Shown here in pieces: positions 5,024 to 30,514 of a stretch of 32,000 nucleotides of DNA. The notes beneath the pieces were generated by a model. That model did no database searches, had not been told where the DNA came from, and was given only the letters and a program-made list of their open reading frames with translations. The position numbers and the translations under genes were made by a program. This DNA is from Candidatus Saccharimonadota bacterium (lineage in GTDB: Archaea; Micrarchaeota; Micrarchaeia; Micrarchaeales; Micrarchaeaceae): the NCBI GenBank assembly GCA_021654395.1, contig AP024486.1:180001-212000 (forward strand), written 5' to 3'. How positions within the stretch are numbered: position 1 is the first letter of the stretch; the number at the start of each line of letters is the position of its first letter.

Positions 5024-6643
5024 ATGATATATATGAAAAGATTTAGCTATATACTGATATTTATAGCTGTTATATTAATACTAATATTAGCATATTTTGG
5101 ATATAGTAGATATAGCAGCAATAAGTACTACTTTGAGTTAGAGGCATCATACTCTAATACTACTTATCCATTTCAGATAGACTATATAAATATAACAGTA
5201 TTCAACCTAGGCAATACAACGATAAAGGGCTTGCCTGTAGGATACTACGAAGATAACAATCTAGTTAGTGTATTCTATGTAAATGCTACACCGCACAACG
5301 GATCTTTATATAAGATACCTTTTTATACCAGTGCTCCAGGCTTATATAATATATCTATAGTTGCTGATCCTGCGCAGCTCTATAAGGCATATATATATGA
5401 TAGATCTAAAACAGAGATTAGCTTACATATAAATGTTAGCAGATTAGGAAATAGCAATCTTCTCTATTATCTTCCATCTAATAATGTAAGTAATGCATAT
5501 ATATTCTTTGCCGAGAACACAACGGCAGCTGCTATAGATGGTATCGCATCCTCGCTATCTGGATCTTATAGTTACCTTAATCTGATAAATAATGTGACAA
5601 AGGCATTAAGGAATTTAGACAGGTATATGCCATACATAGAGGCAGGTTATATAAACTATAAGAATGGAAGCTATGCGCTATCAGATTACTTTGTAGGACC
5701 TAATAATCAGAATAGTATATTGCAGATACTTCAGAGATCTAGCATACCATTTAAGAAGTTAAACTCAAGCCTATATCAATTAGATATAAGCAATATAACA
5801 TCTTGCTACACATTTAATAGAGGTTGGAATATAATTGTTAGCTATAATGGATTATGTAGCTCTTTAAAGGCTTATAACTATACAATTAATATAAATAATA
5901 CAAATGCAACCACATTGAGATCTCTTGTTACAAGGGCGATATATAAAGGTTCTATTAATACAGGATCCATACTATATTATAATAACAGCAGCTATAGATT
6001 CTCAAACTTTAATATTATAGGAGATAATATATACATATCAACAGCATACAATCATAAACCAATTGAAAATATGACTGCTTCGTGCTTCGGAAATGTAACA
6101 GATTATAATGGTATATCGATCTGTACAACTACACAGATAGCACCATCTAATACTGTTATTATAAAGCAGCAGTACTCTGGTAAGCTATACAACTTTAGCT
6201 TAACAACTATAACAAATACCTCAGTTGATAGTATACTATCTGCTATAAGATCTGGAATAGATCTGATAGACTCATTGTCTCTTAATAAGAGTGCAGTTTC
6301 ATTTGAAAGCCAGTTTAAGAACAGCTGCTCTATAATAGACGCAGACCTATCTTGCAGCTTTAATAGATATAACTCTCTGCTTGATAGATTAAATATAACA
6401 TTAACAAATAGATACAATAGTAGCATATACTTATCAACAGTATACTGCTATAGCAATACTGCGATAATACCAAATAACATCAACTCGAGTATAGCCCCTA
6501 ATAATAGCATATATCTTAATCTTGCATGCTCTAATAGCAATAATATAAGTGTTGCAGGAAGCTATAAGCTATTGATGATATATACCATTAATAAGAAGCT
6601 GAAGTCTGCTAACGGTACAGTAAACTATACACTAGCTATCTAA
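5024..6643 (+). CDS. Secreted or surface protein with an N-terminal TM/signal anchor, very rich in N-glycosylation sequons
   Basis: 539-aa ORF. N-terminal hydrophobic anchor YILIFIAVILILILAYFGY. More than 20 N-x-S/T sequons by eye. The N/S/Y/I-rich composition is typical of archaeal extracellular glycoproteins. Confidence 0.6.
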   Translation: MIYMKRFSYILIFIAVILILILAYFGYSRYSSNKYYFELEASYSNTTYPFQIDYINITVFNLGNTTIKGLPVGYYEDNNLVSVFYVNATPHNGSLYKIPFYTSAPGLYNISIVADPAQLYKAYIYDRSKTEISLHINVSRLGNSNLLYYLPSNNVSNAYIFFAENTTAAAIDGIASSLSGSYSYLNLINNVTKALRNLDRYMPYIEAGYINYKNGSYALSDYFVGPNNQNSILQILQRSSIPFKKLNSSLYQLDISNITSCYTFNRGWNIIVSYNGLCSSLKAYNYTININNTNATTLRSLVTRAIYKGSINTGSILYYNNSSYRFSNFNIIGDNIYISTAYNHKPIENMTASCFGNVTDYNGISICTTTQIAPSNTVIIKQQYSGKLYNFSLTTITNTSVDSILSAIRSGIDLIDSLSLNKSAVSFESQFKNSCSIIDADLSCSFNRYNSLLDRLNITLTNRYNSSIYLSTVYCYSNTAIIPNNINSSIAPNNSIYLNLACSNSNNISVAGSYKLLMIYTINKKLKSANGTVNYTLAI

Positions 6644-6957: not shown

Positions 6958-7980
6958 ATGCTCTCGCCTTTCATTAATAGCATTTATGGTTATATAAACG
7001 GCATACTTAGATATTATACAAGCCAGCTACTAGCATCATCAATAAGCGCTATTATAGCTGCCTTAATATTTACGATACTTCTTTCAATATTACTAACTTT
7101 TTATGCTGTTATATACGGCTGGGTAGAGAGAAAGCTGCTAGCAAGGGCACACTCAAGACACGGCCCCACATATGTTGGTAAGTTTGGAATACTACAGAAT
7201 ATAGCAGATGTAATTAAGCTACTGTCTAAGGAGCATATAACCCCAAAGTATGCCTCTAGAGGCTTATTCTTTGGTGGCATATTAGCAGTAGCAGCGTTAA
7301 CTGTCTTCTCTACCACTATACTGCCTCTATCTCCTTACTTTTACGGGCTTTACTCTAATTACAGTCTATTAATTATATTTCTTACCTTAGCAGTATCTCC
7401 ATTACTGATCTTTATAGTAGGTTGGGTCTCTGGTAATAAGTTCTCTTCTATAGCATCACAAAGATCTATAGTTGTACTTGTAAGCTTTGAGTCTGTTCTT
7501 TTAATTACATTAGTTGCTATATCGCTCAATGGTGGCTTTAATATAATAGATGTGGTAGAGGCTCAATCTAATATATGGAATATTATAAGATACCCGATAC
7601 TTTTCATTGTATTCTTAATAGCCTTGTTGGCTGAGCTTGAGAGGCCGCCATTTGACTTTAGAGAAGCAGACAGCGAGCTAATAGCTGGATGGTTAGTTGA
7701 TGTAAGCCCCAGATACTATGCTATAGCGCTGCTAGTCGATTACATAAGGCTATATATGGGATCATTACTTATAACTGACTTATTCCTTGGCGGTTGGTTA
7801 GGACCTGTCCTTCCAGCTCTTGTCTGGAGCTTTATAAAGCTTACAATAGTAACACTATTAATAATATTTATCAGAGTAACGTTCTTTAGAAGTAAGATTG
7901 ACAGAGTTGTTAAGATAGGTTGGGTTTATCTTCTGCCATTAGCAGTTATAAATCTTCTAGCAAGCTTTTTATTTATTTAA
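6958..7980 (+). CDS. nuoH: NADH-quinone oxidoreductase subunit H
   Basis: GWVERKLLARAHSRHGP, the ELERPPFDFREADSELIAGW motif, and about 8 TM segments. Confidence 0.9.
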   Translation: MLSPFINSIYGYINGILRYYTSQLLASSISAIIAALIFTILLSILLTFYAVIYGWVERKLLARAHSRHGPTYVGKFGILQNIADVIKLLSKEHITPKYASRGLFFGGILAVAALTVFSTTILPLSPYFYGLYSNYSLLIIFLTLAVSPLLIFIVGWVSGNKFSSIASQRSIVVLVSFESVLLITLVAISLNGGFNIIDVVEAQSNIWNIIRYPILFIVFLIALLAELERPPFDFREADSELIAGWLVDVSPRYYAIALLVDYIRLYMGSLLITDLFLGGWLGPVLPALVWSFIKLTIVTLLIIFIRVTFFRSKIDRVVKIGWVYLLPLAVINLLASFLFI

Positions 7981-9136: not shown

Positions 9137-10870
9137 ATGATACCTTATCTGTTATTTATACCTCTTATAGTTGGGATGCTTATATACTTAGTCTTGCCTA
9201 ATGATAAGGATAGCTTATCTAAGATAGTTGCCATTATAGCATCTTTACTCACTCTTATATTAAATATACTTCTCTATGCAGATCTAAACTCTATATACAC
9301 CATAAGCTGGTTTAGTATATCTAGCTATAGCTTTAATATAGAGCTAACATTCAATTATATAAACTATCTGCTCTCTATAATAGTATCTTTCATAGGCTTT
9401 CTTATAAACATATATGCAGCAGGCTATATAGATAGCTCTTCTAGAAGATTCTTCTTTGAGCTATCATTATTTGAGTTAGGTATGTTGATCTTTGCACTAT
9501 CCTATAGCATATTAGCTCTTCTAATAGGATGGGAGCTTCTAGGTATAAGCAGCTATCTACTTATAGGCTTCTATTATGAAAGAAAGGATGCTGCTTTTTC
9601 TTCAAGAAAGGCCATAACAACAGTAATGCTAGGAGATATATTTCTATTAGTTGGCGTTGCCTTGATATTCTCACAAGGCTTCTCAAGCTTATATGGTATA
9701 ACTGCTGCAGATAATACTGCTATACTATATGGACTAATCTTTATCTTGATAGGAGCATTTACTAAATCTGCACAGTTTCCATTCCATGAATGGTTAAGCG
9801 ATGCGATGTCTGGACCAACTCCTGTATCTGCGTATCTCCATTCATCTACAATGGTTAAGGCAGGAGTCTTCCTAATACTGCTAATGCTACCAGAATATCA
9901 GCTATATAATCTAACAGACCCTATACTTATAATAGGCTTCATATCTGCACTTATAGGAGCTATAAATGCATTATCTGAGAGGCATATTAAGAAGGTATTA
10001 GCTTACTCTACTATAGAGGATCTAGGCTTAATGTTTATAGCCATAGGCCTAAACCTTCCTTATGTAGCATTAGCTCTATTTGTATTTCAGACTTTCTATA
10101 AGGCAGCATTATTCATGTATAGTGGAGTTGTTATAAAGGCCAATGATGATAGAGAAGATATATACAAAGTCAGCGTTGATAAGGGACTTATAGCTAGTAT
10201 CTCTAGCTTAATAGCTGTGCTATCATTAATAGGCATATTCCCACTAAGCGGATACTTTGGAAAGGGATTCCTTTTAGACTCTTCTATTAGATCAATGTCA
10301 ATAGGAGAGTATAGCTATATTGCATTTGCTCTACTTGTCATAATAGAGCTCCTTACATCATTATATATCTTTAGATGGTGGCTTATTCCAAGAAGGAGTA
10401 AGAGCAATAGAAGCAAAGTTAGCAATCTTATGAATGCACCATTTTACATACTTGTTATAATAAATGCATTGGCTTATCCTATCTTCCTTCTATTCTTATA
10501 CTATATAACAGCTAATGGCTACTCTGCTACTTATAGCATAATAAGTATATACACAATTATTGACTATATTATAGCAGGATTAGCTGCGTATCTCTCTTAT
10601 AAGATAGTTAAATCAGGATATGATAAGCATATCATTAGCTTTAAGAGTATAGTGAATAGCTTCTATGCAGCTTTATATAATGCATTAAATGCATTCTCAT
10701 TAGCTTTATCGGTATTTGACTCTTATATATATAGATTCTATCTTTATATATCTAACTTGTTTATAATATTAAGCTCAAAGGTGCCTATTATACAGAATGG
10801 TAGATTAAATACTTATATAGTTATATTTATAATTGGTATTATAATGGTAATAGCAGTGTTAGTTATATGA
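9137..10870 (+). CDS. nuoL: NADH-quinone oxidoreductase subunit L (Mrp-type antiporter-like)
   Basis: FPFHEWLSDAMSGPTPVSAYLHSSTMVKAG signature. 577 aa, polytopic. Confidence 0.9.
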   Translation: MIPYLLFIPLIVGMLIYLVLPNDKDSLSKIVAIIASLLTLILNILLYADLNSIYTISWFSISSYSFNIELTFNYINYLLSIIVSFIGFLINIYAAGYIDSSSRRFFFELSLFELGMLIFALSYSILALLIGWELLGISSYLLIGFYYERKDAAFSSRKAITTVMLGDIFLLVGVALIFSQGFSSLYGITAADNTAILYGLIFILIGAFTKSAQFPFHEWLSDAMSGPTPVSAYLHSSTMVKAGVFLILLMLPEYQLYNLTDPILIIGFISALIGAINALSERHIKKVLAYSTIEDLGLMFIAIGLNLPYVALALFVFQTFYKAALFMYSGVVIKANDDREDIYKVSVDKGLIASISSLIAVLSLIGIFPLSGYFGKGFLLDSSIRSMSIGEYSYIAFALLVIIELLTSLYIFRWWLIPRRSKSNRSKVSNLMNAPFYILVIINALAYPIFLLFLYYITANGYSATYSIISIYTIIDYIIAGLAAYLSYKIVKSGYDKHIISFKSIVNSFYAALYNALNAFSLALSVFDSYIYRFYLYISNLFIILSSKVPIIQNGRLNTYIVIFIIGIIMVIAVLVI

Positions 10871-13978: not shown

Positions 13979-14956
13979 ATGAATATAATAATACCAAGAA
14001 AGTTAGAAAGATGATCAAATATAAGAGTAATAGCACCATCAAATAGCATGGCAATCATATCTGAGGATGTTAGATCAATAGCAAAGCAGAGACTTGAAGA
14101 TATGGGTTATAAGGTATCTTTGGCAAGCATGTAGAAGAGTCTAATGAGTTCAATTATGCAAGCATAGAATCAAGAGTAGAGGATCTTATTAAGCATTTTA
14201 AGACCCTACTGTTGATAGCATATTAACAGTTATAGGAGGATATAATGCAAATTAGCTTTTAGATTACATAGATTTTGAAGTAATAAAGAGAAATCCGAAG
14301 ATACTCTGTGGATATTCTGATATAACTATATTAAATGATTCAATACTTAAGAAAACAGGTTTAATTACATACTATGGGCCCAATTTTCAACATTTGGAAT
14401 GCTTAAAGGGATAGATTATACCATAGAGTATTTTAATAGATGTTTAGCTCAAGATAAGCCATTTAATATAATTCCGGCAGAGGAATGGAGCGATGATGAA
14501 TGGTATATAGACCAAGAAAGATGCAACTTCATAAAGAATAATGGATTCTTGCTTATACATGAAGGCGAGGCAGAAGGAAAGATAGTAGGAGGTAATCTAT
14601 CAACACTTTCATTGCTACAAGGAACTGAATATATGCCTAGCTTAAAAGATAGTATACTATTTATAGAAGACGATGAAGGGGTTAGCCCAAGAGTATTTGA
14701 TAGATAATTGCAATCATTACTACAGCAAGAAGCAGAAGGCATAAAGGCTTTAGTTATAGGAAGATTTCAAAATGCATCTGGTATAACTGATGAAGTATTA
14801 AAGAAGATTATTAACAATAAAAGAGAGCTTGCTAATATTCCTGTTATTGCTAATGTAGACTTTGGCCACACTACACCACAGATAACATTTCCTATTGGAG
14901 TTACAGTTAAAGTAATCTCTGAAGATAATCCACAAATCGAGATTCGTATTCATTAA
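13979..14956 (+). pseudogene. Decayed peptidase S66 (LD-carboxypeptidase / MccF-like) gene
   Basis: Family motifs are recoverable only by hopping between frames: [33 protein letters not shown] (nucleophile Ser), GGNLSTLSLLQGTEYMP, LFIEDDEG, DFGHTTPQITFPIG. There are at least 3 frameshifts and at least 2 in-frame stops. Track ORFs 14399..14707 and 14708..14956 are fragments of it. Confidence 0.8.
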
Positions 14957-15184: not shown

Positions 15185-15931
15185 ATGTTTCCTTACTCAA
15201 GAATAGTAGTAACATTTAGAGCTTTAGATCCAAATTTTACTTCTTCTAATCTATTCTATAATCATAATTATCCATTTTATTCAACAATATTGAGTATAAT
15301 AAAGAGTGAAGATCAAGAGTTATCTAAGGAGATACATGAAAATAAATATAAGAGAGCTTTCCTATTTTCAAACATTATACCTACTAAACGTAGGAACGAA
15401 TTTAGAATATTTATAACGAGCCAGCATAAAAAGATACAACAAGCTATAGCTAACGGCTTCTCAAGACTTAGCACGAGTAGACCTTTAATAATTTATTATG
15501 AAGGTTCTCAATACCTCTTTTCAATAAATAACGTTAATATTCAAAGCTTTTCTATATCAGATAAGAATAATACTTACAGATTCAACTTCCTTTCTTATTT
15601 TATACTTAGAGGTGAAGATGGAAAACCTATAGAGCCTAAAGATGACTCAGAATTTTCAATATACATAAAAGAAAGCTTGCTTAGAACTGTAAGAAGTATA
15701 GGAATTAAAGATGAATTTGATTTAAGGATAAACGGTAGTTGTTCTTTTAAGAAAAAGCTAATAAAAATAAAGCATGAGTTTTATAGAGCGTGGTCTGCAG
15801 CATCTCCTAAAAAAACTATTGAGATATCTGGTAGCGAGTTAGTTGCAGCTAGTGCTTTGTATCTAGGTATTGGCGATAAGACAAAGATGGGATTCGGAAT
15901 GCTTGGCATAGAGAAAGGTGCTATAGAATGA
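15185..15931 (+). CDS. cas6: Cas6 crRNA endoribonuclease
   Basis: First gene of the cas operon. C-terminal glycine-rich loop LGIGDKTKMGFGMLGI is typical of Cas6. 248 aa. Confidence 0.8.
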   Translation: MFPYSRIVVTFRALDPNFTSSNLFYNHNYPFYSTILSIIKSEDQELSKEIHENKYKRAFLFSNIIPTKRRNEFRIFITSQHKKIQQAIANGFSRLSTSRPLIIYYEGSQYLFSINNVNIQSFSISDKNNTYRFNFLSYFILRGEDGKPIEPKDDSEFSIYIKESLLRTVRSIGIKDEFDLRINGSCSFKKKLIKIKHEFYRAWSAASPKKTIEISGSELVAASALYLGIGDKTKMGFGMLGIEKGAIE

Positions 15932-17382
15932 GGCTTAATGCTATAATTAATAACACTAAAGAAGAAGCACTCTTAATACTTAAATCTTTATATCCTGAAA
16001 AATCTAGAGAAGATTTAGAAAATGAGGTTGAAAACGAGCTTAATGAAATTAAAGAAAAAGCAAATGAGATTAAAAACGAATATTTTGGTGGAAACAAAGA
16101 TATCTTCAAGAATAGATATACTTATTTATATTCAATAATAAGCTATATTGCAGTTTCGATAAGAGAGGAAAATCTTGGAAAACTTTTTAATAGGAAAGGT
16201 TATAAAACGAATGACCCAAATAATCATATAAAAGACTTCTTACCAAAGAACGCTATTATTCTAGATCCAAAAGAAATCAAATCTCCATCTACGTTACAGC
16301 CTTATATTAAGAGCTTTACTGACTATCTTTTCTACCTCTTTTTGATAAACCCATTAATAAAACCATCAATTAAAATTAATACGAGCAAAAGAAGTAGGAA
16401 TAAGCAGAAAGACGAACTTTACTGTATTGCTTGTGGTAGAAGTGAAACAAAGCTATTTAATCCAGTATTCTTTGCTAAGTTATCAAATGCTACAAATCTA
16501 ATAGTAAATACTGTAAAAGGTAATCCATTAGATCTTGTATGCTTTAGCTGCAACTTTTGGATTTTTATATCTGATTTTATATTGGCTAACAGGCACAAGG
16601 TAGATACGAGTTTTATTTATTATGCCCTTTTATCAGGAGATGGTAAATATATATCTATTGAAAATACCCTAGAAAGATTTGTAAAGGAGTATTCAATTAA
16701 CAGAAGCGCTGACCTTGAGATACTATTTTTTATTAAAGAAAAAGGAAATAAGAATGATACTTTCTTAGGCCAAGCTAGATTTAACATAATGCCAAGATTG
16801 GCTGAGATATATGAAAATGAGCCCAAAAGAATAAAGAACTTTCTTAAATCTTTCCTTTTCACGGGTGAAGTTGAAGAGCACATTAGAAATGGTATTATTA
16901 AACAAAAAGAGGATGTATATATTAAAAGGAATATCCTAGATCTTCTCAGCTTTATAGAAACAGGTTTTATACCAGATGATTTATTTATATTATTTAATGA
17001 ATATATGCGTGAGAATTACGATAGATCCTCTAAGAAATCAAGGATATTTAAAGATTTTAAATATTTTCTAGTGGTATATATGAATAACGAAGAAAAGAAT
17101 TATATAAAAGAAGGCCTTAAATTTGCTAAAAGTTTGAAAAACTCAGTTAAAGATGAGGATGAAAAAGAAAGTATGAAAAAGTACATAATTTCAATTTCTG
17201 CTGTAATGGAGTCTAGCGGGACAGAGTTCTTAAGGCAAATGAATACTATTTTAAGAATGTACAAGCCAGTTATTGATGAATCTGATGAGATGACTGAAAA
17301 TCTTATAAATATAGCAAATAATAAAAGATATCTGAGCGAATTTGTAACAGGGTTGCTTTTAGGATTATCTACTAATGAATAA
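15928..17382 (+). CDS. cas8b: Type I-B large subunit Cas8b (Csh1-like)
   Basis: Position between cas6 and cas7, with an ATGA overlap onto cas6. 484 aa. Cys pairs CIACGR...CFSCNFW. The call rests mainly on synteny. Confidence 0.65.
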   Translation: MRLNAIINNTKEEALLILKSLYPEKSREDLENEVENELNEIKEKANEIKNEYFGGNKDIFKNRYTYLYSIISYIAVSIREENLGKLFNRKGYKTNDPNNHIKDFLPKNAIILDPKEIKSPSTLQPYIKSFTDYLFYLFLINPLIKPSIKINTSKRSRNKQKDELYCIACGRSETKLFNPVFFAKLSNATNLIVNTVKGNPLDLVCFSCNFWIFISDFILANRHKVDTSFIYYALLSGDGKYISIENTLERFVKEYSINRSADLEILFFIKEKGNKNDTFLGQARFNIMPRLAEIYENEPKRIKNFLKSFLFTGEVEEHIRNGIIKQKEDVYIKRNILDLLSFIETGFIPDDLFILFNEYMRENYDRSSKKSRIFKDFKYFLVVYMNNEEKNYIKEGLKFAKSLKNSVKDEDEKESMKKYIISISAVMESSGTEFLRQMNTILRMYKPVIDESDEMTENLINIANNKRYLSEFVTGLLLGLSTNE

Positions 17383-17392
17383 GTGATGGGAT

Positions 17393-18901
17393 ATGCCTAG
17401 AAAAAATGAAGAGAGTGAAGAAAGTGAAGAAATAAAGAGCGTAGTGAATTTTGGTGATTTTAGAAAAGTAAACGCACCAGTTTCCTTTAAAAAAGGCACA
17501 GTAGTAGCAATTTACTATTCCCTACCTTCAAACCAAAATGGAGGAGGAAGCTCTGGAACCAACGTAATAACGCAGAAAGTAATTCCTTTCGGAAAAGATG
17601 AAATGAGAGTTTATGTAAGTCCATTTGCATTAAAAAGGAGAATTCGCGACTATTGGATAAGGCTAAATGATGAAAAAGTTAAAGTTTATTTAAGAGAATC
17701 TAGAGAAGTTCTTGAAAGAGAGAAAAGTACAGGATCTGAAAAGGATAACAATAAGCAACAGAATAGCTCGGCTAGTCAAAATGGCGCGTCTATGGGTACA
17801 CAATTACAGAAAAATGGAAATAATACTGATAATAAAAACAATTTAAGCAACCTTATAGAAGAATATATAGATATTGATCTATTTGGTTATATGAAAGCTG
17901 AAAGTAGAAAAGCACCAGCACTTACAAGGCCAGGTCCAATTACTACTTGGGGAGCAATATCATTAGAACCCTTTGTGGCTTTTGTTGATTTTAATACTTC
18001 AGTAGAATCGACAACAGGATCAAGTGAAGGAGGTTCCATAATAAATAGGTACATATCAACAAACTTTTATTTCACTTCTTTCTTTATTAATACAGATCTT
18101 ATATCTATTGATATGTCAGATGTAGAAAAGAAGGCCAGTAATAAAATGGAAGATAAATTTAAAGATGAAGAACGCGATAAAATATTAAATAAGAGAAAAG
18201 AAAGACTCAAGTACTTCTTTGAAGGTGTAAAGTATGCTATGCAGAAAGAGGTAGGAGGTCCTAGAGATAGACCAGAATGCGTATTTCTAGCAGTAGAAGT
18301 AACAGAAAACCATTATGGACACTTTGATAAATGGATCCTTAAAAATGCAAAAATAGTAGATGTAAATTCTGAGAAACAAGATAATAATAAAGAAGATGCG
18401 AATAGAGAAGACATAAAGGTAAAAATTGATTTTTCTAATTTAAATAAATCAGAACATGGTGACATATATATATTAGTATGCGATGAGAATTATGTAAAAT
18501 TAAGTTGTGGTAATAATGAATTAGACCGTGAAAAATTAATTAATTGCAACGAAAATGGAAATCAAAGTAGCAATGCTAATAAATGGCCTAAGTTTGCAGA
18601 TATAAAAACAGTAGTCGATTTCCTAGTAGGTAAAATAGAGATTACAAAAGATGAGCTTGCTTTAATTAAAAAACTTATTAACATGAAACCTACAGAAAGA
18701 ACAGTAAGTGATATAGAAAAGATGCTTAATGATAATGAGAAAGAGACGCTAAAGGAGCTTATAAAAGAAGGCTTTGTTATAAGATTTAAGAAAGCAAATG
18801 AAGATGAAGAGCACTACACAATACCAGAAGCGGTATATAAAGCAATAAATAAAGAAGAGTATAAATTACTTGACAATAAAAATAATGGAGAGTCTGTTTA
18901 G
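17393..18901 (+). CDS. cas7: Cas7 backbone subunit (Csh2-like), unusually long with a C-terminal extension
   Basis: N-terminal SNQNGGGSSGTN...VSPFALKRRIRDYW, and IDIDLFGYM, the D-x-LFGYM motif of Cas7. 502 aa, against my recollection of roughly 300-350 aa for typical I-B Cas7. Confidence 0.85.
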   Translation: MPRKNEESEESEEIKSVVNFGDFRKVNAPVSFKKGTVVAIYYSLPSNQNGGGSSGTNVITQKVIPFGKDEMRVYVSPFALKRRIRDYWIRLNDEKVKVYLRESREVLEREKSTGSEKDNNKQQNSSASQNGASMGTQLQKNGNNTDNKNNLSNLIEEYIDIDLFGYMKAESRKAPALTRPGPITTWGAISLEPFVAFVDFNTSVESTTGSSEGGSIINRYISTNFYFTSFFINTDLISIDMSDVEKKASNKMEDKFKDEERDKILNKRKERLKYFFEGVKYAMQKEVGGPRDRPECVFLAVEVTENHYGHFDKWILKNAKIVDVNSEKQDNNKEDANREDIKVKIDFSNLNKSEHGDIYILVCDENYVKLSCGNNELDREKLINCNENGNQSSNANKWPKFADIKTVVDFLVGKIEITKDELALIKKLINMKPTERTVSDIEKMLNDNEKETLKELIKEGFVIRFKKANEDEEHYTIPEAVYKAINKEEYKLLDNKNNGESV

Positions 18902-18930
18902 CAGAACAATAAATAATAAGACAGATTGTT

Positions 18931-19689
18931 ATGAATCTAGAAGATTATTTTATTTTTGATATAAAATTAGATTCTTATTTAGCTATGTTTAAGGACAAAA
19001 GAACAGCTACTACTAGAGTATCGCATTTGATACCAAATAAAAGTCAGATTATAGGAATGCTTTTAGCAAAGCTTGGCTTTATAAAGTCATATACTCTAGG
19101 TGACCTATTCGATAAAAATCAGATTCATACCTATAAAAATTTTAATGGCAATAACCTCTTCAATATAAAGTATGCAATAAAAGTAAATATGAGCGGCAGT
19201 TCTACGATAAAAAGATTTCTAGATTACGTAAATTTTGTGGGCGTAGGCAAATATTCTAAGCTTATTGTTTCTCCAGTTTATATAGACTATATAGTCAGTC
19301 CGTCTTATGAAATAGTGATATTTATTCCAAGGAATCTAGATATACTAAGTAAAGAAAAGGATCACCTACTAGACAAAAACTATGAGATGTGTAAGATCTA
19401 CTTTGGTACTAATGAATGTCCTGCCCATATAGAAGAGATTAATGAAATCAGCTACGATGCTATAAATAAGGAAACGGGTCAGATCTCTACAGAATTTGTA
19501 TTACCAAGGTCTAGTATAAAAGAAGTATTATCTGATAACTCCAATTTCATAATAGAAGAGATTGAAGATTCTGAAGGTAAAAATCAGATGAAGGAAGTTA
19601 TAGTGCCTATTGGATCTAAAGTTAAAGTTAACTTAAATGAAGATATTGAATGCTTTAAATATAAAGATTATAGTTTCGTGGTTTTATGA
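18931..19689 (+). CDS. cas5: Cas5 subunit
   Basis: N-terminal Cas5 motif ...KDKRTATTRVSHLIPNKSQIIGMLLAKLGF. Position between cas7 and cas3. Confidence 0.75.
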   Translation: MNLEDYFIFDIKLDSYLAMFKDKRTATTRVSHLIPNKSQIIGMLLAKLGFIKSYTLGDLFDKNQIHTYKNFNGNNLFNIKYAIKVNMSGSSTIKRFLDYVNFVGVGKYSKLIVSPVYIDYIVSPSYEIVIFIPRNLDILSKEKDHLLDKNYEMCKIYFGTNECPAHIEEINEISYDAINKETGQISTEFVLPRSSIKEVLSDNSNFIIEEIEDSEGKNQMKEVIVPIGSKVKVNLNEDIECFKYKDYSFVVL

Positions 19690-22577
19690 TGATAGGGGAT
19701 TATTACCTTGCAGGAAAAAATCAGACGCTTGCTGAACATCTTGTAGACACTGGAAGGAATTCTGGAGAACTAGCAAAGAGCTATAGTGAAAAATATATTA
19801 GCTCGATCAAAAAAAGCAGATATATTAATATACCTGATGAAGCTTTAGATAAATTACCAGAGTTGTTTAGTACTTATGGCTCTTTGGTGGGATTTTTACA
19901 TGATTTTGGAAAAGTATCACGCAGATTCCAGTGTAATTTAAAAAGGCATTATAAAATTTGGCCAATCAGTAAAATAAAAGAAGAAGATAATAAACAGAAA
20001 ATAAAAAAAGAAGATAATAAACAGAAAAGCAATGACTCTAAAGGTATAACCAAACGTTCAAAAGTGGAATTATACAATATTCAAATTGATATTTTGAATG
20101 CCAGAAGAGTAGCAGAGCTTAAAAGTAAACTAAAACGCGGATATACAAAGTTTAGGCACCCAATAGCTGCGCTACCCGTAGTATACTTCTTCCTTAACAT
20201 TTTAACCTTAGAGCCACTAGAAGATTTAAAAAACAAACTTACTGAAAAGGATCAGATGCTTGCTGAACATCTGAAAGAGATATTTGATGCTTGTGCTCTT
20301 CTAGCTATATACTTTCACCATAATGAAATTAATTTGTCAACATTATATAACGATGTGCTTCGTTTAAGTAGCGAGAAAAATTATGATGATTATCTTACTC
20401 TTTCAGAAGAAGAAGTTAAAATTGGCTTTGAAATAGTAAGAAATCATATAAAAGAAGCAGTAAAAAATATTAAAGATGAAGATATAAAGAAGATATCTAT
20501 AGAAGAATTTAATAAATTTATAGGATTAGACACAAGTAGCAGCTTCAAAGAAAAGTATAAAGAGAAGCTTAAGAGAATACTTTTAGATATTATTAAAGAA
20601 AAGTTTTTAGCTTATAGCATTGATAATATTTCAGACCTTATGCTAGGGAAGGAGATCCTAACTATTCTTTACTCTAGTTTAATAGAGGGAGATTGGACCT
20701 CATCCTCTAAAAGGATTAAAGATGATATTAACAATAGACCTCAGGATAATATATGCTTTAATGAACTTTATGAGCGCTTAAAAAGCAAATTAGAAGAACT
20801 TAAAATTAAAGAAACAAATTCAGAGGTATCTACTATTAGACAAGAAATAACGCATGCTATTGATTCTAGCAAAGGCAATAAGATTATATTGACTGCTCCT
20901 ACAGGTATAGGAAAAACAGAGATATCTTTACTATGGGCGCTTAAAAAAGCACATGAAATCGATGCAAAAAAGATAATCTATGTTTTGCCTTTAAAAGCGC
21001 TTATAGAAGATATATATGAAAGACTTAAAAAATATTTTGGAGAAGGAGATATTATAAATAGATGGGATTCTGATGGTGAAATCGATCTACTTGAGTCTGT
21101 ACAAAAAGAGTTAGAAGATAAAAAACCAGATGATAAAAAAACTGAAAGCAGTGATTTATTTAACTTTCTAAAAGTAGCAAGAAAATATTTCCTTAAGGGC
21201 AAAATAATTATAACAACAGCCGATCAGATCTTAATGACATACCTAAATAACGGAAGATATGCAATTAGATATGGTATGTTCTATGACTCAGTTTTTGTTT
21301 TTGATGAAATACAAAATTACGGCTCTACTATAAGAAATCTCTTATATCATTTTATTAATGATGTTCCAAGGGCTTACTTAATAATGACTGCAACACTACC
21401 TGTAGAGTTAAAGAAGTTAGGTAAAAAGCTAATAGATTTTGACGAACTTATAGAAAACGATAAATGGTTGGAATTTCATAAATATAGAGATGCTAGCATA
21501 TCTACATATAAAGAGAGTATAGATGTATATCTAAACTCTTCTTATGAAGATATATTATCATCCCTTAAAGAAGACTTAAAGAATAAAGATATAAACCGCA
21601 TTGCTGTAGTGGTTAACACTATTAGCGAAGCCTTAGAGTTATATAATAAAATTAAAAAAGATATAAACGAAGAGATAGAAAAAGGTAATGTAAATATATC
21701 TCTTCTGCATTCTGAAATGCTTAAAGATGATAAAGACAAAGTTCTAAAGTCATTCTTAGAAGATAAAAAGACAACGCAATTATCTAACTCAAGTAATTCA
21801 GATACTATCTCAGCGAACCAGAAAAGGATATTGGTCTCTACGCAAGTAATAGAAACCGGGGTAAATATATCTTTTGATAAGATGTATAGACTAATAGCTC
21901 CTTTGCAGTCTATTGTGCAGTCTATGGGAAGAGTTCATAGATTTGATGAAAATAATAAACCTTTTGAATTTGTAATACTTTACCCTTCTCATGAAGAGAA
22001 AGACAAAGATAAAGAAAGCAAAGACAAAGATAAAGAAAATAAGAAAAGTAATGAAGGCTTAAATAAAGATATTTTTGAACCTTATCCTATGGAAGATGTC
22101 TATACTTCACTAAATTTTATTAAAAGTATCGAAAATGAAGGAGTTAAAAGTAAATTCGACTTCGAAAAGAAAGTTGAAGAATATATATTAAACCAGTTTA
22201 AAGAGGAATCGTTTTACATAGAGTATGATTACTTTAAGCCTATACTTGCTAAAGTAAAAGCAAGCGTTTGGACTACTTCCAGTGTAGAAGAGATATTAGG
22301 AACAAATCTAAGAGAGATTTCTAATAGAGTGCCTGCTTTTGTAGGAAGTGAAGAAGAGTATAAAGAACTACGTAATAAAATTGCAAGTAAAAAAGATAAC
22401 CTTACAGAAGACGACGTAAGAGATTTATTGGAATTCAAGAAGAGGTTTATCAATATAAACAAATGGGGTATTAAGTTTATGAACTACATGATTAAGCCCA
22501 AGTCTGTAATAGAAGGAGGTTACGTATTAGACGAGGAAGCGTATAATGTTTTAGCAGGTAAACCAACAAAAATATAA
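19686..22577 (+). CDS. cas3: Cas3 fusion of HD nuclease and SF2 helicase
   Basis: HD domain motifs LAEHLVDTG and GFLHDFGK. Helicase motif I LTAPTGIGKTE, motif II VFDEIQ, motif VI QSMGRVHR. 963 aa. Confidence 0.9.
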   Translation: MMIGDYYLAGKNQTLAEHLVDTGRNSGELAKSYSEKYISSIKKSRYINIPDEALDKLPELFSTYGSLVGFLHDFGKVSRRFQCNLKRHYKIWPISKIKEEDNKQKIKKEDNKQKSNDSKGITKRSKVELYNIQIDILNARRVAELKSKLKRGYTKFRHPIAALPVVYFFLNILTLEPLEDLKNKLTEKDQMLAEHLKEIFDACALLAIYFHHNEINLSTLYNDVLRLSSEKNYDDYLTLSEEEVKIGFEIVRNHIKEAVKNIKDEDIKKISIEEFNKFIGLDTSSSFKEKYKEKLKRILLDIIKEKFLAYSIDNISDLMLGKEILTILYSSLIEGDWTSSSKRIKDDINNRPQDNICFNELYERLKSKLEELKIKETNSEVSTIRQEITHAIDSSKGNKIILTAPTGIGKTEISLLWALKKAHEIDAKKIIYVLPLKALIEDIYERLKKYFGEGDIINRWDSDGEIDLLESVQKELEDKKPDDKKTESSDLFNFLKVARKYFLKGKIIITTADQILMTYLNNGRYAIRYGMFYDSVFVFDEIQNYGSTIRNLLYHFINDVPRAYLIMTATLPVELKKLGKKLIDFDELIENDKWLEFHKYRDASISTYKESIDVYLNSSYEDILSSLKEDLKNKDINRIAVVVNTISEALELYNKIKKDINEEIEKGNVNISLLHSEMLKDDKDKVLKSFLEDKKTTQLSNSSNSDTISANQKRILVSTQVIETGVNISFDKMYRLIAPLQSIVQSMGRVHRFDENNKPFEFVILYPSHEEKDKDKESKDKDKENKKSNEGLNKDIFEPYPMEDVYTSLNFIKSIENEGVKSKFDFEKKVEEYILNQFKEESFYIEYDYFKPILAKVKASVWTTSSVEEILGTNLREISNRVPAFVGSEEEYKELRNKIASKKDNLTEDDVRDLLEFKKRFININKWGIKFMNYMIKPKSVIEGGYVLDEEAYNVLAGKPTKI
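19977..20030 (+). repeat. In-frame 27-nt tandem duplication inside the cas3 HD region (KEEDNKQKI/KKEDNKQKS)
   Basis: AAAGAAGAAGATAATAAACAGAAAATA followed directly by AAAAAAGAAGATAATAAACAGAAAAGC. 24 of 27 nt identical. Confidence 0.9.
21999..22040 (+). repeat. In-frame 21-nt tandem duplication inside the cas3 C-terminal region (KDKDKES/KDKDKEN)
   Basis: AAAGACAAAGATAAAGAAAGC followed by AAAGACAAAGATAAAGAAAAT. Confidence 0.9.
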
Positions 22578-22597
22578 AAAGATTAAGGAAGAAAGCG

Positions 22598-23131
22598 ATG
22601 ATCAAGGTGAAGGAGGAGAGTTTATCTGATATAGAATTTAACGATATAAGTGGTGTAGAGGTACAGTACTACTTTACATGTAAAACAGAGTTATGGTTAT
22701 TTTCACATCAAATTCTTTATACAAATGAAGATGAAAATGTCTTAATAGGAAGATTATTGCATGAGAGTAAATATAAAAGAAAGAAGAAAGAGCTTTCTAT
22801 AAATAGAAGCAAGCTTGATGTATTTAATGTAGATCCTTATCTAATCTATGAATTAAAGAAAAGTAAGATAACTGAAGGAGATATCTATCAGCTAAAGTTT
22901 TATTTATACCAAGTCTATTTAGCAACTAATAAAAAACCAAAAGGAGTTATAATAACAAAAGGCTTTAGAAGATTAATAGAGCTTAGTGATGAAGATATAA
23001 AAACAATTGAAAGCGCATTAGAAGATATTAAAATAATTAAGTCTTTAGACGTTCCTCCAAAGCCAGAGTATAAAAAGATATGCAGACTCTGCTCTTATAG
23101 AAGATTCTGCTTTGGAGATATATATGAGTAA
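22598..23131 (+). CDS. cas4: Cas4 RecB-like nuclease with a 4-Cys Fe-S cluster
   Basis: N-terminal Cys (YYFTCKTE) plus the C-terminal CRLCSYRRFC. Nuclease motifs D...ELK (DPYLIYELKK) and QLKFY. Confidence 0.85.
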   Translation: MIKVKEESLSDIEFNDISGVEVQYYFTCKTELWLFSHQILYTNEDENVLIGRLLHESKYKRKKKELSINRSKLDVFNVDPYLIYELKKSKITEGDIYQLKFYLYQVYLATNKKPKGVIITKGFRRLIELSDEDIKTIESALEDIKIIKSLDVPPKPEYKKICRLCSYRRFCFGDIYE

Positions 23132-24083
23132 AAAGAACTTATACATATTTAAAGATGGAGCTATAAGACTAAAGAATACTACATTATACCTAATAACTAA
23201 AGAAGAAAAGATACCACTGCAAATAGAGCAGATAAGAAGCATATACTTTATAGGCTCTGGATCTATATCAACTAAAGTTCTACAGAGATTCAAAGAGCTT
23301 GGCATATTAATACATTTTTATGATAGATTCGGTAATTATATAGGAACTTTCTATCCAAAGGATAATCTTATATCTGGAGAGATCTTACTAAGACAAGCTA
23401 AAGCAGCAATAGATATTAATTCTAGATTGAGATTTGCAAAGCTATTTGTGACTGGTGCAATGAAGAACATAAATTGGATACTAGATAGATTTGGGCTAGA
23501 TCAGTTAGAAATAAAAGACATTAGCAATATATCTAATATAAATGAACTTATGCAAGCTGAGGGCTTGTTTAGAAGAATGTTTTATGATAAATTAGACTCT
23601 AAATTGCCTGATGAATTTAAGATAGTTAAGAGAGAGATGCATCCACCATCAAATAGAGGTAATGCGCTATTAAGCTTTCTAAACTCTTTAGTCTATAACC
23701 TCGTTACAACTGAAATCTATTATACTCATTTAAACCCTTCTATCTCCTATCTACATGAACCATTTGAAAGAAGATTCTCGTTGAGCTTAGATGTTGCTGA
23801 GATATTTAAACCTTTACTAAGTGAAAGATTAATCTTAAGATTATGCGATCTAAAGCAGCTAGATCCAGTAGCAGATTTTGAAGATAATGAGGGCTTATTC
23901 TTAAGCAAATTAGGATTGAAGAAAGTTGTTAAAGCATTTGATGATGAGATATCTAAAACAATACAATTTAGAACTAAAAATAAGAACGTTACAATAAGGC
24001 AGCTTGTCCGTATAGAGCTATATAAGATAGAAAAGGATCTCTTAGGAATAAAGGAGTATAAGCCATTAGTATGTTGGTGGTAA
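23124..24083 (+). CDS. cas1: Cas1 integrase
   Basis: MSKKNLYIFKDGAIRLKNTTL..., and SYLHEPFERRFSLSLDVAEIFKP (the conserved H..E...SL.LD..E.F.P region). I prefer the ATG at 23124, which overlaps the cas4 stop by 8 nt, to the track's TTG at 23112. Confidence 0.9.
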   Translation: MSKKNLYIFKDGAIRLKNTTLYLITKEEKIPLQIEQIRSIYFIGSGSISTKVLQRFKELGILIHFYDRFGNYIGTFYPKDNLISGEILLRQAKAAIDINSRLRFAKLFVTGAMKNINWILDRFGLDQLEIKDISNISNINELMQAEGLFRRMFYDKLDSKLPDEFKIVKREMHPPSNRGNALLSFLNSLVYNLVTTEIYYTHLNPSISYLHEPFERRFSLSLDVAEIFKPLLSERLILRLCDLKQLDPVADFEDNEGLFLSKLGLKKVVKAFDDEISKTIQFRTKNKNVTIRQLVRIELYKIEKDLLGIKEYKPLVCWW

Positions 24084-24084
24084 T

Positions 24085-24357
24085 TTGTTTGTTATTGTTG
24101 TTTATGATATAAGTTCAGTTAGATTACAAGGAAGAATCAGAAACTTCTTGAGAAGATTTCTAAATCATATTCAGCTATCAGTATTTGATGGTGAGTTAGA
24201 TCCTTCACAGGCTAAGGAGATTGAGCTGTTCTTAAAGGATCAGAATTATAACGATGGTGAATATACTATTATGTATACAATTAGCTTTCATGGAAAAGTT
24301 GATAGAAACATATTTGGTAAACCGAAAGATTTAAGATATGATGAGAACATAATATAG
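24085..24357 (+). CDS. cas2: Cas2
   Basis: 90 aa. The N-terminal beta strand MFVIVVYDIS carries the conserved Asp. It lies directly after cas1 and before the array. Confidence 0.85.
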   Translation: MFVIVVYDISSVRLQGRIRNFLRRFLNHIQLSVFDGELDPSQAKEIELFLKDQNYNDGEYTIMYTISFHGKVDRNIFGKPKDLRYDENII

Positions 24358-24435
24358 TATTATACATTTGCACAAAAATAGGTTTGTAGCAATTTTTAAT
24401 TGTGTTTTACCAAAATGTATTCGAAGCTGCGGCTG
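24358..24435 (+). promoter_or_regulatory. Putative CRISPR leader (only 78 nt between the cas2 stop and repeat 1)
   Basis: AT-rich with a TATA-like TTTTTAATTG. Its position next to cas2 and the repeat orientation (3' end ...ATGTAAAC) both argue for plus-strand transcription. Confidence 0.45.
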
Positions 24436-25537
24436 GTATAAAATCATACAGAGATGGATGTAAACCCTCAGCTTCCAAGCTTACCCAGAAGCGCAAACAA
24501 CAGTATAAAATCATACAGAGATGGATGTAAACTGTGGTATACCTTTGCAAATGTATTTGATTAATGTAGTCTGTATAAAATCATACAGAGATGGATGTAA
24601 ACTAGGTTCCAGCTGTATAACTATTTGAATATACTAAAAGTATAAAATCATACAGAGATGGATGTAAACATATATAGCATTACTATAGAGCCATTTATAC
24701 TTGGCGTATAAAATCATACAGAGATGGATGTAAACGAGTTGTAGATATCATACTTAACTCGTCGTCAGATAGGTATAAAATCATACAGAGATGGATGTAA
24801 ACATGAATCTCTCAATGCTGATAATCATGAATTCCTATACTATTAGTATAAAATCATACAGAGATGGATGTAAACTTGCAATTTAATTTGTGAATTTAAT
24901 ATTATTATTTTGTATAAAATCATACAGAGATGGATGTAAACTTAGGTTCAGATGCTATCTCTATATCATGATTTAAATGCATAAAATCATACAGAGATGG
25001 ATGTAAACTTCTATATAAGCTATTTTTTATGTTTTTTTATTTTGTATAAAATCATACAGAGATGGATGTAAACCAGTTCCAATACTCGATATAGGATTTA
25101 CTTCGCATAAGTATAAAATCATACAGAGATGGATGTAAACTCGCAGACATTCTTTCATATGATTCCACTGAGATTTGTATAAAATCATACAGAGATGGAT
25201 GTAAACTTGGCATAACAATCAATTAGTAATATATAAAGGAAGAGTATAAAATCATACAGAGATGGATGTAAACGCGGTTGTAAGCATAGTGCAAAACATA
25301 AAGGTATAAGTATAAAATCATACAGAGATGGATGTAAACGATATAACAGTAAAGCTAAATCCTACATTAAGCATAGTATAAAATCATACAGAGATGGATG
25401 TAAACTCTGTTATTTTCATTCCTTTCATACCTCCTCCTCTCGTATAAAATCATACAGAGATGGATGTAAACACATATTACTAGATGCTAACCGCTCTAAA
25501 ATGGATAGTATAAAATCATACAGAGATGGATGTAAAC
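24436..25537 (+). CRISPR. CRISPR array: 17 repeats of 30 nt (GTATAAAATCATACAGAGATGGATGTAAAC) and 16 unique spacers
   Basis: Repeat starts counted by hand: 24436, 24503, 24573, 24640, 24706, 24773, 24846, 24912, 24979, 25044, 25111, 25177, 25244, 25310, 25376, 25442, 25508. Spacer lengths: 37, 40, 37, 36, 37, 43, 36, 37, 35, 37, 36, 37, 36, 36, 36, 36 nt. All repeats are identical except repeat 9 (24979), which has T2>C (GCATAAAATC...). Confidence 0.97.
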
Positions 25538-25567
25538 TAAGCATCACTCAAATAATTGTCAATAGTA

Positions 25568-25577
25568 TTAAATATAT
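25568..25577 (+). promoter_or_regulatory. TATA-like box upstream of the array-embedded mini-ORF
   Basis: TTAAATATAT centred about 32 nt upstream of the ATG at 25605. This is compatible with a leaderless or very short-leader archaeal mRNA. AT-rich motifs are common here, so the support is weak. Confidence 0.25.
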
Positions 25578-25604
25578 TACCTGTGTTATTATTATTTAGA
25601 GTAT

Positions 25605-25784
25605 ATGAGATGGCATTGGTTGGTAATAAGCTCCTTTGTGATTCTGTTGTTTGGTCTAAGTATGGGGAGTTGGAATTCGATAGTAGGTGGGTTTCTGAGT
25701 TTAATGGGCTTTGTCGTGTTTGGAATGGGCTTAGGCTACCTCCTAGCGGAGCATATCCTGAAGAAGGAGCAGAAATCAAATTAG
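25605..25784 (+). CDS. Candidate 59-aa two-TM glycine-rich mini-protein embedded in the CRISPR array (not in the ORF track)
   Basis: My own translation: MRWHWLVISSFVILLFGLSMGSWNSIVGGFLSLMGFVVFGMGLGYLLAEHILKKEQKSN*. It has two hydrophobic helices joined by a 3-4 residue turn, small-xxx-small motifs (GFVVFGMGLG) and a charged C-terminal tail. G+T-rich codons explain the local base skew. This is compositional and structural plausibility only. Two other frames are also open here. Confidence 0.4.
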   Translation: MRWHWLVISSFVILLFGLSMGSWNSIVGGFLSLMGFVVFGMGLGYLLAEHILKKEQKSN

Positions 25785-25822
25785 ATGTGGTGTAGTCTCC
25801 GCTTAAAGCATAACCTCCTCTG

Positions 25823-25852
25823 GTATAAAATCATACAGAGATGGATGTAAAC
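25823..25852 (+). CRISPR. 18th, perfect CRISPR repeat, separated from repeat 17 by 285 nt
   Basis: Exact copy of GTATAAAATCATACAGAGATGGATGTAAAC, 40 nt upstream of the photolyase ATG. Confidence 0.95.
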
Positions 25853-25892
25853 GGAGATATTTAATTAAATTAACTTCTTCATTAATGATTTA

Positions 25893-27200
25893 ATGAGAAG
25901 CATATTCTTATTTCATAGAGATCTTAGACTAGAAGACAATTCTGCTTTAATAAGAGCATTAAAAGAGAGTGAAGAAGTACTTCCATTATTTATAATTGAT
26001 CCTAGACAAGTAGAAGATAATGAATACAAATCTCTTTATGCAATAGGCTTTATGATAGACTCATTAATAGATCTAGATAATGAATTAAAGAAGCATAACT
26101 CTAAGCTACATGTCTTAAAAGGAATTGCAGAAGAGATATTACCAAAGATAGCGTATGAATTAAATATTGAAAGAGTGTACTTTAATGAAGATTATACACC
26201 ATTTAGCATAAAGAGAGACTCCTCTATAAAAGAGAGATTTAAAGGAGAAGTTATAACTGAAGAAGATTATTTACTAGTAAAGAAAAACTTCTTTATAAAT
26301 AAAGGAAAGCCTTACTCAGTATTTACTCATTTCTATAAAGATGCTTTAAATTTAGATATAAGAAAACCTATACAGAATAGATATAATAATTATATTAAAG
26401 CAGATCTTCCAGGCATAGAGATACTAAGAGACATAAAATATGAAAGACCAGCATTAAAAGGAGGCAGAAATGAAGCGTTAAAGCTTCTTGAAAGAGCTAG
26501 AAGCATAGATTATAGACTTAGAAATATTCCAGCTGCAAATGCAACAACTATGCTTTCAGCATATATAAAGTTTGGTTGTATATCTATAAGAGAGGCTTTT
26601 CATAACCTTAATGATTCTATAAAAAGACAGCTCTTCTGGAGGGACTTTTATACATTATTGGCTTATTATAATCCACATGTATTTGGACATGCTTATAAGA
26701 GAGAGTATGAAAATATAAGATGGAACTATGATGAAAAGCTATTTGAGGCTTGGAAGAATGGATTAACAGGCTATCCTATTATAGATGCAGGAATGAGAGA
26801 GCTTAATCAGACAGGCTATATGCATAACAGAGTAAGAATGATTGCAGCATCATTCTTGGTTAAGGTATTGCATATAGACTGGCGCTTAGGAGAGAGATAC
26901 TTTGCTACTAAGCTTGTTGATTATGATCCTTCTGTAAATAATGGAAACTGGCAGTGGGTTGCTTCTACAGGAGCAGATTACATGTTTAGATTATTTAATC
27001 CATGGATACAACAGAAGAAGTTTGATCCTAATGCAGATTATATAAAGAGGTGGGTACCGGAGCTTAAGGATCTAGAGCCAGATGTAATTCATAATATATA
27101 TAATTATAACATAGATAATTATCCAAAGCCTATAGCAGACTATTATAAAGAGATAAAGACAGCTAAGCAGCTTTATGGAATATATAATAGGAGCTATTAA
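25893..27200 (+). CDS. phr: Deoxyribodipyrimidine photolyase (class I CPD photolyase/cryptochrome family)
   Basis: FLFHRDLRLEDNSAL, WRDFY, TGYPIIDAGMRELNQTGYMHNRVRMIAASFLVK, DYDPSVNNGNWQWVASTG. Confidence 0.9.
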   Translation: MRSIFLFHRDLRLEDNSALIRALKESEEVLPLFIIDPRQVEDNEYKSLYAIGFMIDSLIDLDNELKKHNSKLHVLKGIAEEILPKIAYELNIERVYFNEDYTPFSIKRDSSIKERFKGEVITEEDYLLVKKNFFINKGKPYSVFTHFYKDALNLDIRKPIQNRYNNYIKADLPGIEILRDIKYERPALKGGRNEALKLLERARSIDYRLRNIPAANATTMLSAYIKFGCISIREAFHNLNDSIKRQLFWRDFYTLLAYYNPHVFGHAYKREYENIRWNYDEKLFEAWKNGLTGYPIIDAGMRELNQTGYMHNRVRMIAASFLVKVLHIDWRLGERYFATKLVDYDPSVNNGNWQWVASTGADYMFRLFNPWIQQKKFDPNADYIKRWVPELKDLEPDVIHNIYNYNIDNYPKPIADYYKEIKTAKQLYGIYNRSY

Positions 27201-29830: not shown

Positions 29831-30514
29831 ATGCCAGAAAAAGAGCTAGTATCTATTGTTATACCGACCTGGAATGAAGCAGGAAATATAAGAACGCTTA
29901 TAGAAGATATAAATAGATGCCTTAAAGGCTATAACTATGAGATATTAGTTATAGATAAGTACTCTGAGGATGGTACAGCAGATATCGCAAGAAAGATGGG
30001 GGCCAGAGTTATTTTAGATAAAGGCGGAAAAGGGGCAGCTCTAATAAGAGGCTTTAAAGAGGCTAAAGGAGATATAGTAGTGTCGATGGATGCTGATCTA
30101 TCGCATAGGCCAAAAGAGCTTGTACTTCTGATAGAGAGTATAAAGATAGGCTATGATGCTGCGATGGGGTCTAGATTTATAATAGGTGGTGGTAGCTCAG
30201 ATATGCCATGGTACAGAAGATTTGGGAATAAGGTATTTGTAATACTTGTAAATCTTTTATATAGAACGCATTATACAGATCTATGCTATGGCTACAGAAG
30301 CTTCTCTAAGGAAGCATTAAATAGGCTTAAGCTTAGAGAGGAAGGATTCGGTATAGAGACAGAGATAAATATAAAGTGTGCTAAGCAAAGACTTAATATA
30401 ATAGAGATACCGAGCTATGAGAAGAAGAGAAGCAGCGGAGAGGCAAAGCTTAGAACTTTCAGAGACGGCTTTAGAATATTAAAGGCGATAATTAAGTATA
30501 AATTTATGGATTAG
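29831..30514 (+). CDS. GT2 family glycosyltransferase (dolichyl-phosphate sugar synthase, Dpm1-like)
   Basis: VSIVIPTWNEAGNI, DKYSEDGT, DADLSH (DxD), GSRF. 227 aa. Confidence 0.85.
   Translation: MPEKELVSIVIPTWNEAGNIRTLIEDINRCLKGYNYEILVIDKYSEDGTADIARKMGARVILDKGGKGAALIRGFKEAKGDIVVSMDADLSHRPKELVLLIESIKIGYDAAMGSRFIIGGGSSDMPWYRRFGNKVFVILVNLLYRTHYTDLCYGYRSFSKEALNRLKLREEGFGIETEINIKCAKQRLNIIEIPSYEKKRSSGEAKLRTFRDGFRILKAIIKYKFMD

Follow-up and report, generated by a model that had tools for sequence, protein, structure and literature searches.

A small gene of foreign composition framed by the last two repeats of a type I-B CRISPR array in the DPANN archaeon ARM-1

The CRISPR-cas locus and its array

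The window (the whole 32,000-nt stretch of DNA that was analyzed) comes from Candidatus Microcaldus variisymbioticus ARM-1 (Micrarchaeota, DPANN). Long and short reads were assembled jointly to close the ARM-1 genome (814,439 bp, 34.1% GC), and the organism was grown with Metallosphaera sp. AS-7 (47.1% GC); the paper describing it mentions a type I-B system and "CRISPR repeats" and is silent on the interval reported here (PMC8784108). The cas operon occupies positions 15185 to 24357 on the + strand and comprises cas6, a cas8b-like gene, cas7, cas5, cas3, cas4, cas1, and cas2. Pfam matches were obtained for Cas6, Cas7, Cas5, Cas3, Cas4, Cas1, and Cas2, and a cas8b-sized ORF without Pfam assignment follows cas6; the system has been typed as subtype I-B (PMC8784108). 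Two of the proteins are much longer than those of related DPANN type I-B loci: Cas7 (17393-18901) has 502 aa vs. 308-351 aa, and Cas3 (19686-22577) has 963 aa vs. 731-814 aa. Both appear to bear additional domains. Before the operon, an LD-carboxypeptidase (muramoyltetrapeptide carboxypeptidase) gene at 14399-14956 appears in the annotation as a pair of CDSs, BCS90751 and BCS90752, which lie in one frame and are separated by a single in-frame TAA (14705-14707); the gene is probably a pseudogene.

The 78 nt after cas2 (24358-24435, + strand) were recognized as the CRISPR leader by comparison with the leaders of three related loci (L005, L007, and L008), with which they have in common a TATA element and the motif TGCAnAAAA...TTTGyAnCAA. 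The leader ends in CTG directly before repeat 1 (CAG in L007). The array that follows, from 24436 to 25852, consists of 18 copies of the 30-nt repeat GTATAAAATCATACAGAGATGGATGTAAAC, 17 of them identical; the only deviating copy is repeat 9, with a T>C change at position 2. Repeats 1 to 17 and 16 ordinary spacers of 35-43 nt fill positions 24436 to 25537 on the + strand. Repeat 17 is then separated from repeat 18 by 285 nt (25538-25822, + strand), and repeat 18 (25823-25852, + strand) is perfect and terminal. A recount gave the same repeats, spacer lengths, and interval as the original prediction. Because the leader lies after cas2 and the array is read on the + strand, the interval is the leader-distal, that is, the oldest, of the 17 slots. 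The repeats that bracket it are perfect and in register, as those of a spacer would be, and its length falls outside the 35-43-nt ruler that holds for all 16 local spacers and for approximately 172 spacers of related arrays. The last three nucleotides before repeat 18 are CTG, as in leaders, and none of the 16 spacers ends in this way, perhaps by chance. A second leader ahead of repeat 18 was considered and rejected, the terminal CTG being all that the sequence there has in common with leaders.

Spacer 1, the newest (24466-24502), has a GC content of 51%, far above that of the genome, whereas the other spacers range from 11% to 39%. This suggests a target of higher GC content, e.g., the Sulfolobales host or viruses thereof; a 26-mer from this spacer had no exact match in viral contigs. 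At the other end of the array, the trailer and the photolyase promoter occupy 25853-25892 on the + strand, as seen from the sequence and from comparison of upstream regions, and the photolyase gene begins at 25893, 40 nt past repeat 18. Between the two lies a perfect 12-nt palindrome, ATTTAATTAAAT (25859-25870), which is also a TATA-like element and could in principle promote transcription both ways.

Cas1 relatives with 55-65% identity were found in other DPANN archaea, including Anstonellaceae and Aenigmatarchaeota. Seven arrays at these loci have closely related repeats of the form GT[TC]TAA[AC]ATC[AG]TACA[GA][AT]GATGGATGT[GA]A[AC][CT]. No long interval was found in these seven arrays, in which all of the approximately 172 spacers measured 35-42 nt; of the arrays sampled, that of ARM-1 alone contains such an interval. 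The arrays of L005 and L007 end in perfect repeats, and the terminal repeats of the remaining related arrays carry one or two mismatches. Therefore, the perfect state of repeat 18, which the original prediction had cited together with that of repeat 17 against ordinary trailer decay, is unremarkable per se. Duplicate spacers were seen within two of the related arrays (spacers 6 and 10 of L005; spacers 3 and 13, and 58 and 65, of L007). In addition, three Aenigmatarchaeota MAG contigs (L011, L012, and L013) carry the same array, with four more spacers at the leader end in L011, which is a clean case of leader-end growth in this repeat family.

Composition and coding content of the interval

The interval differs in composition from its surroundings. 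Positions 25605-25781 (177 nt) contain 55 G, 22 C, 59 T, and 41 A (43.5% GC), the G and C counts being exactly those obtained by hand before, and the first 30 photolyase codons have a GC3 of 16.7%, in agreement with the earlier estimate of approximately 17%. When every 177-nt segment of the 32 kb (31.6% GC) was considered, 0.6% reached the GC content of this stretch and 0.3% reached its G+T content (0.644); a GC content of at least 0.42 combined with a G+T content of at least 0.60 occurred nowhere else. The claim that the stretch is more GC-rich than anything nearby was valid locally and not for the window as a whole, in which coding stretches at 7100-7850 and 29950-30230, and the tRNA region, reach a similar GC content.

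As stated in the original prediction, three reading frames stay open across 25600-25800; two of these belong to the + strand and the third to the - strand. One of the + frames is a 59-codon ORF (25605-25784, + strand) whose product, MRWHWLVISSFVILLFGLSMGSWNSIVGGFLSLMGFVVFGMGLGYLLAEHILKKEQKSN, is hydrophobic (GRAVY 0.81), with two hydrophobic segments and the charged C terminus EHILKKEQKSN. In the AlphaFold2 model the product forms a helical hairpin (helices 2-21 and 25-58, pLDDT 74.6), and it is accordingly predicted to be a membrane protein with two transmembrane helices. Its only large tryptic peptide comprises 51 hydrophobic residues and would escape standard proteomics (e.g., PXD045678). 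Leu, Gly, Val, Phe, Ile, Met, and Trp account for 39 of the 59 residues. Because such residues are encoded by TTN, CTN, GTN, GGN, ATG, and TGG codons, they explain the richness in G+T. The earlier explanation of the open frames as a by-product of the skew is thus reversed, since the skew follows from the hydrophobic residues that are encoded.

Among 1.84 billion representative proteins, a full HMMER search identified a sole relative (E = 5e-6), the 91-aa protein P0001 (hypothetical protein LVQ95_02425) encoded in a Ca. Micrarchaeales MAG (locus L002). The two proteins are 51% identical over residues 5-58 of the 59-aa product, with 29 invariant columns that include GGFL and GYLLAEH. When all six frames of the insert were compared with L002 by tblastn, the 59-aa frame gave E = 1.4e-12, whereas the best other frame gave 5e-7 over 32 residues. 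Composition-preserving shuffles of the protein placed the similarity at z = 16.6. Over the 53 aligned codons, pN was 0.36 and pS was 0.79 (saturated), with 24, 15, and 34 differences at the first, second, and third codon positions, although these values come from one pairwise comparison of a hydrophobic protein. Frame-specific similarity and a pattern of purifying selection place the product in the family of P0001, again on a single pair, and the evidence from this pair is good that the 59-aa frame is a real coding sequence.

Other searches returned little. No significant match was obtained from Pfam, PHROGs, PADLOC, or NCBIfam, and P0001 itself weakly matched a PHROG holin family (E = 0.008). 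Foldseek found no match with E <0.9 to the hairpin model in BFVD and PDB. A word-index protein search returned no match for the 59-aa query and only P0001 itself for the P0001 query, and an exact look-up of the 59-aa product returned no contig on record. Pattern and tblastn scans of genome, viral, and metagenome contigs produced only a spurious match to an 18-residue transmembrane segment in a Clostridia MAG.

The GenBank annotation places a different CDS here, ARM1_0218 (BCS90761.1; 61 aa; 25610-25795, + strand), in the overlapping +0 frame, as identified by exact look-up. Its product has no relatives and no family matches and is not hydrophobic (GRAVY -0.02), and its frame showed no significant similarity to L002 (tblastn, E = 0.13). 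ARM1_0218 is probably a mis-called frame, and the gene caller probably chose it because its GC3 (0.30) is host-like.

The ATG at 25605 is the earliest start codon of the 59-codon ORF. A TATA-like box, TATTAAATATATTA (25566-25579, + strand), lies 26-39 nt upstream, and the same layout of TATA and ATG was found upstream of other first genes of the window (cas6, photolyase, the genes at 5024 and 29004, and others), which suggests that an mRNA of the ORF would be leaderless or near-leaderless. A TATA-like match with at most one mismatch occurred at equal distance from 20% of random positions, and for this reason the box is weak evidence in AT-rich DNA. The ORF runs in the direction of the array and would therefore also be contained in the pre-crRNA, with Cas6 sites in repeats 17 and 18 around it. 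Downstream of the ORF, a 3' flank of 38 nt (25785-25822, + strand; 47% GC) runs up to repeat 18, possibly as a 3' UTR or as what is left of a spacer; it had no match in viral contigs.

It is also conceivable, although improbable, that the interval holds no functional gene, being either a dead foreign fragment (a pseudogene remnant) or the seat of ARM1_0218 as the true product. P0001 extends at its C terminus by a tail of 22 residues that is missing from the ORF, the unameliorated composition of the ORF means that the insertion may be too recent for any selection to have followed it, and the GC3 of the annotated frame is that of the host. Against this, the ORF is intact from its first possible start codon and has the TATA-like box at the correct distance, whereas ARM1_0218 has neither the relatives nor the hydrophobicity noted above for the 59-aa frame.

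Origin of the interval

The GC3 of the 59-codon frame was 0.54, compared with 0.26 ± 0.06 in 19 long ORFs of the window. Among 6395 windows of 59 host codons the maximum was 0.42, and a value above this maximum indicates a foreign origin of the ORF, in agreement with the foreign composition claimed originally. The genome that encodes P0001 has a GC content of 50%, and the GC3 of its other measured genes was 0.42-0.67, with most values between 0.55 and 0.62. By composition, the ORF would have come from a genome of approximately 45-50% GC, and the ARM-1 copy appears to have been imported recently from a lineage of higher GC content, for which another Micrarchaeote, or a mobile element of one, is a plausible candidate.

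In L002, P0001 is part of an A-B-A arrangement in which two segments of approximately 200 nt (9687-9899 and 10353-10545) surround a 453-nt segment with the small gene. The A segment contains the 3' end of a Gly-rich pilin-like gene and intergenic DNA, and the A-B-A arrangement lies just upstream of MCM. The same A-B-A loop was present in an independent ENA metagenome contig (L003, 1-751). The position of P0001 between direct repeats hints, from two instances, that the gene family moves as a small recombining cassette.

A search for a donor of the interval in phage, plasmid, viral-contig, genome, and metagenome collections found none, nor did it find an empty site or a second strain. The search for a viral or plasmid source suggested with the original prediction gave only chance matches when the insert was compared with phage and plasmid collections by blastn and tblastn, and 22-mers from each end of the insert were absent from viral contigs.

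The interval is not a decayed part of the array. The best alignment of the repeat with the insert scored 7, below the shuffle mean of 8.2, and no match with eight or fewer mismatches was found; because no degenerate repeat lies inside, trailer decay is rejected here, as it was in the original prediction. A structured RNA was likewise rejected, with no Rfam match at E ≤ 1 and folding z scores of +0.82 for the sense strand and -0.03 for the antisense strand.

An assembly artefact, in which the 285 nt came from elsewhere, e.g., from Metallosphaera javensis AS-7 (47% GC), and were mis-joined between repeats, is very improbable. The GC content of the insert does resemble that of the co-cultured host, short-read contigs do break at repeats, and a Logan short-read contig stops at repeat 18. 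However, both junctions fall exactly at repeat boundaries and in phase, the genome was closed with long and short reads (PMC8784108), the sole homologue is from Micrarchaeales and not from Sulfolobales, and a chimera would require the same 30-nt repeat on the other replicon.

What lies at the trailer end of the array is a foreign small gene, exactly between two perfect repeats. We consider it probable that ARM-1 gained a mini-gene by horizontal transfer and that this mini-gene, the interval, now fills the oldest spacer slot of its type I-B array. Among the three explanations offered at the outset, a captured gene cassette fits best, given the small conserved protein-coding gene inside. The insertion event would have used the CRISPR repeat itself, and two routes can be envisaged, either of which would leave a perfect repeat on both sides. 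The favored one, recombination having also been among the initial explanations, is an exchange between an array repeat and a repeat-bearing donor or circular fragment; in the other, Cas1-Cas2 would have integrated an over-length fragment with the normal duplication of the repeat. Recombination is favored because the 35-43-nt ruler is otherwise strict and because a unit of promoter and ORF is unlikely as a random prespacer. At the trailer end an insertion would perturb crRNA production least. Once in place, the ORF would be transcribed into a leaderless mRNA under control of the TATA-like box, and cleavage by Cas6 in repeats 17 and 18 would release an RNA of approximately 315 nt bearing the ORF. 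The interval is not immune memory, and the default reading of its content is a passenger membrane-protein gene.

The second route, taken as an explanation of its own, states that, at a time when the array still began with repeat 18, Cas1-Cas2(-Cas4) inserted approximately 285 bp between leader and repeat, and that 16 normal spacers were added later. Perfect repeats in register around a spacer slot, the oldest position (as expected of the first acquisition), and the foreign nature of the DNA are all consistent with it. Nevertheless, we regard it as unlikely, since none of the local or related spacers departs from the length ruler and since a full promoter and ORF in a randomly caught fragment would be a coincidence. 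To our knowledge, no natural gene-sized spacer has been established.

Comparison with known systems and significance

Viruses and plasmids with solitary repeat units or mini-arrays recombine with host arrays. Recombination with such an element would likewise give a repeat-insert-repeat arrangement with perfect repeats. The exact repeat GTATAAAATCATACAGAGATGGATGTAAAC was absent from the viral and metagenome contigs searched, and no repeat-bearing element with the ARM-1 repeat was found in these collections.

The ARM-1 case resembles IS insertions, and Tn7-like transposons whose targets are CRISPR repeats (PMC11837452), in that foreign DNA interrupts an array. The ARM-1 insert differs from them in its length of 285 nt, in having no transposase, inverted repeats, or element-type duplications, and in having edges that are the edges of the repeats. 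A transposon, IS, or MITE was rejected, since there were no terminal inverted repeats, no transposase ORF, and no second copy, and there was no target duplication beyond the repeat itself; on the same grounds, the element targeting repeats that had been among the initial explanations has no support.

CreTA and CreP are similar in that a gene other than cas lies beside repeats within a CRISPR-cas locus (PMC8501985, PMC9458426), and the CreP toxin is a captured foreign protein (bioRxiv 10.1101/2024.01.05.574328). However, CreTA sits inside the cas operon, whereas the ARM-1 gene is in the array, and CreA requires degenerate repeats around a pseudo-spacer that partly matches the toxin promoter, neither of which was found in ARM-1. 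Matches of the spacers and of the sequence after repeat 18 to 25538-25822 spanned only 11-12 nt of AT-rich, low-complexity sequence; there being no complementarity beyond this, a CreA-like guide is absent.

In Clostridioides difficile, type I toxin-antitoxin genes adjoin type I-B CRISPR arrays (Maikova et al. 2018, PMC5961336). What the two cases have in common is a protein of <60 aa that is hydrophobic, ends in a charged C terminus, and is encoded in physical linkage to a type I-B array, and the 59-aa ARM-1 product has this size and this kind of C terminus. The C. difficile genes, in contrast, flank the arrays and encode one transmembrane segment, with proven antisense antitoxins and toxicity, whereas the ARM-1 gene is between two repeats, encodes two predicted transmembrane helices, and belongs to a DPANN archaeon. 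By this analogy, or by that with CreTA and CreP, an addiction module resembling type I toxins could be proposed, in which an antisense RNA, or else transcription of the array together with Cas6 processing, would restrain a membrane-active toxin, and the toxin would stabilize the CRISPR-cas locus. In its size, its hydrophobic core, and its charged tail rich in Lys, the product corresponds to type I toxins as generally described (PMC5961336); P0001 weakly matched a holin family; the gene is physically within a type I-B array, the downstream palindromic TATA-like box could in principle fire an antisense transcript, and crRNA-like guides repress protein toxins elsewhere (CreP, bioRxiv 10.1101/2024.01.05.574328). 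We hold such a module to be unlikely, however. Neither the spacers nor the sequence after repeat 18 are complementary to the ORF promoter (best matches of 11-12 nt, of low complexity), and degenerate repeats are absent. PADLOC, Pfam, and NCBIfam gave no matches, and two transmembrane helices are predicted instead of the usual one. The feature is also missing from the seven related arrays, and no CRISPR lies in the vicinity of the homologue in L002.

A bolder reading, which we consider improbable, would see the array as an integron-like platform for gene capture. A unit of promoter and ORF would enter a spacer slot through the adaptation machinery or repeat-guided recombination, its mRNA would be released by Cas6, and its product would act as a toxin or in abortive infection, with an output tied to how the array is transcribed and processed. 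The placement of P0001 between direct repeats is a suggestive detail in this respect.

The ARM-1 arrangement is an unusual variant of two known themes, interrupted arrays and small membrane-protein genes linked to type I-B arrays. It is a single instance, an association without conservation, and may be a neutral passenger insertion. If real and functional, it would mean that a pair of CRISPR repeats can frame and carry a protein-coding gene, and that the association of type I-B arrays with genes for small membrane proteins extends to archaea, besides Clostridioides. It would also mean that gene callers trained on host codon usage can mis-frame fresh small transfers, as with ARM1_0218. The co-culture of ARM-1 and Metallosphaera would offer a culturable system for the release of an mRNA from pre-crRNA by Cas6.
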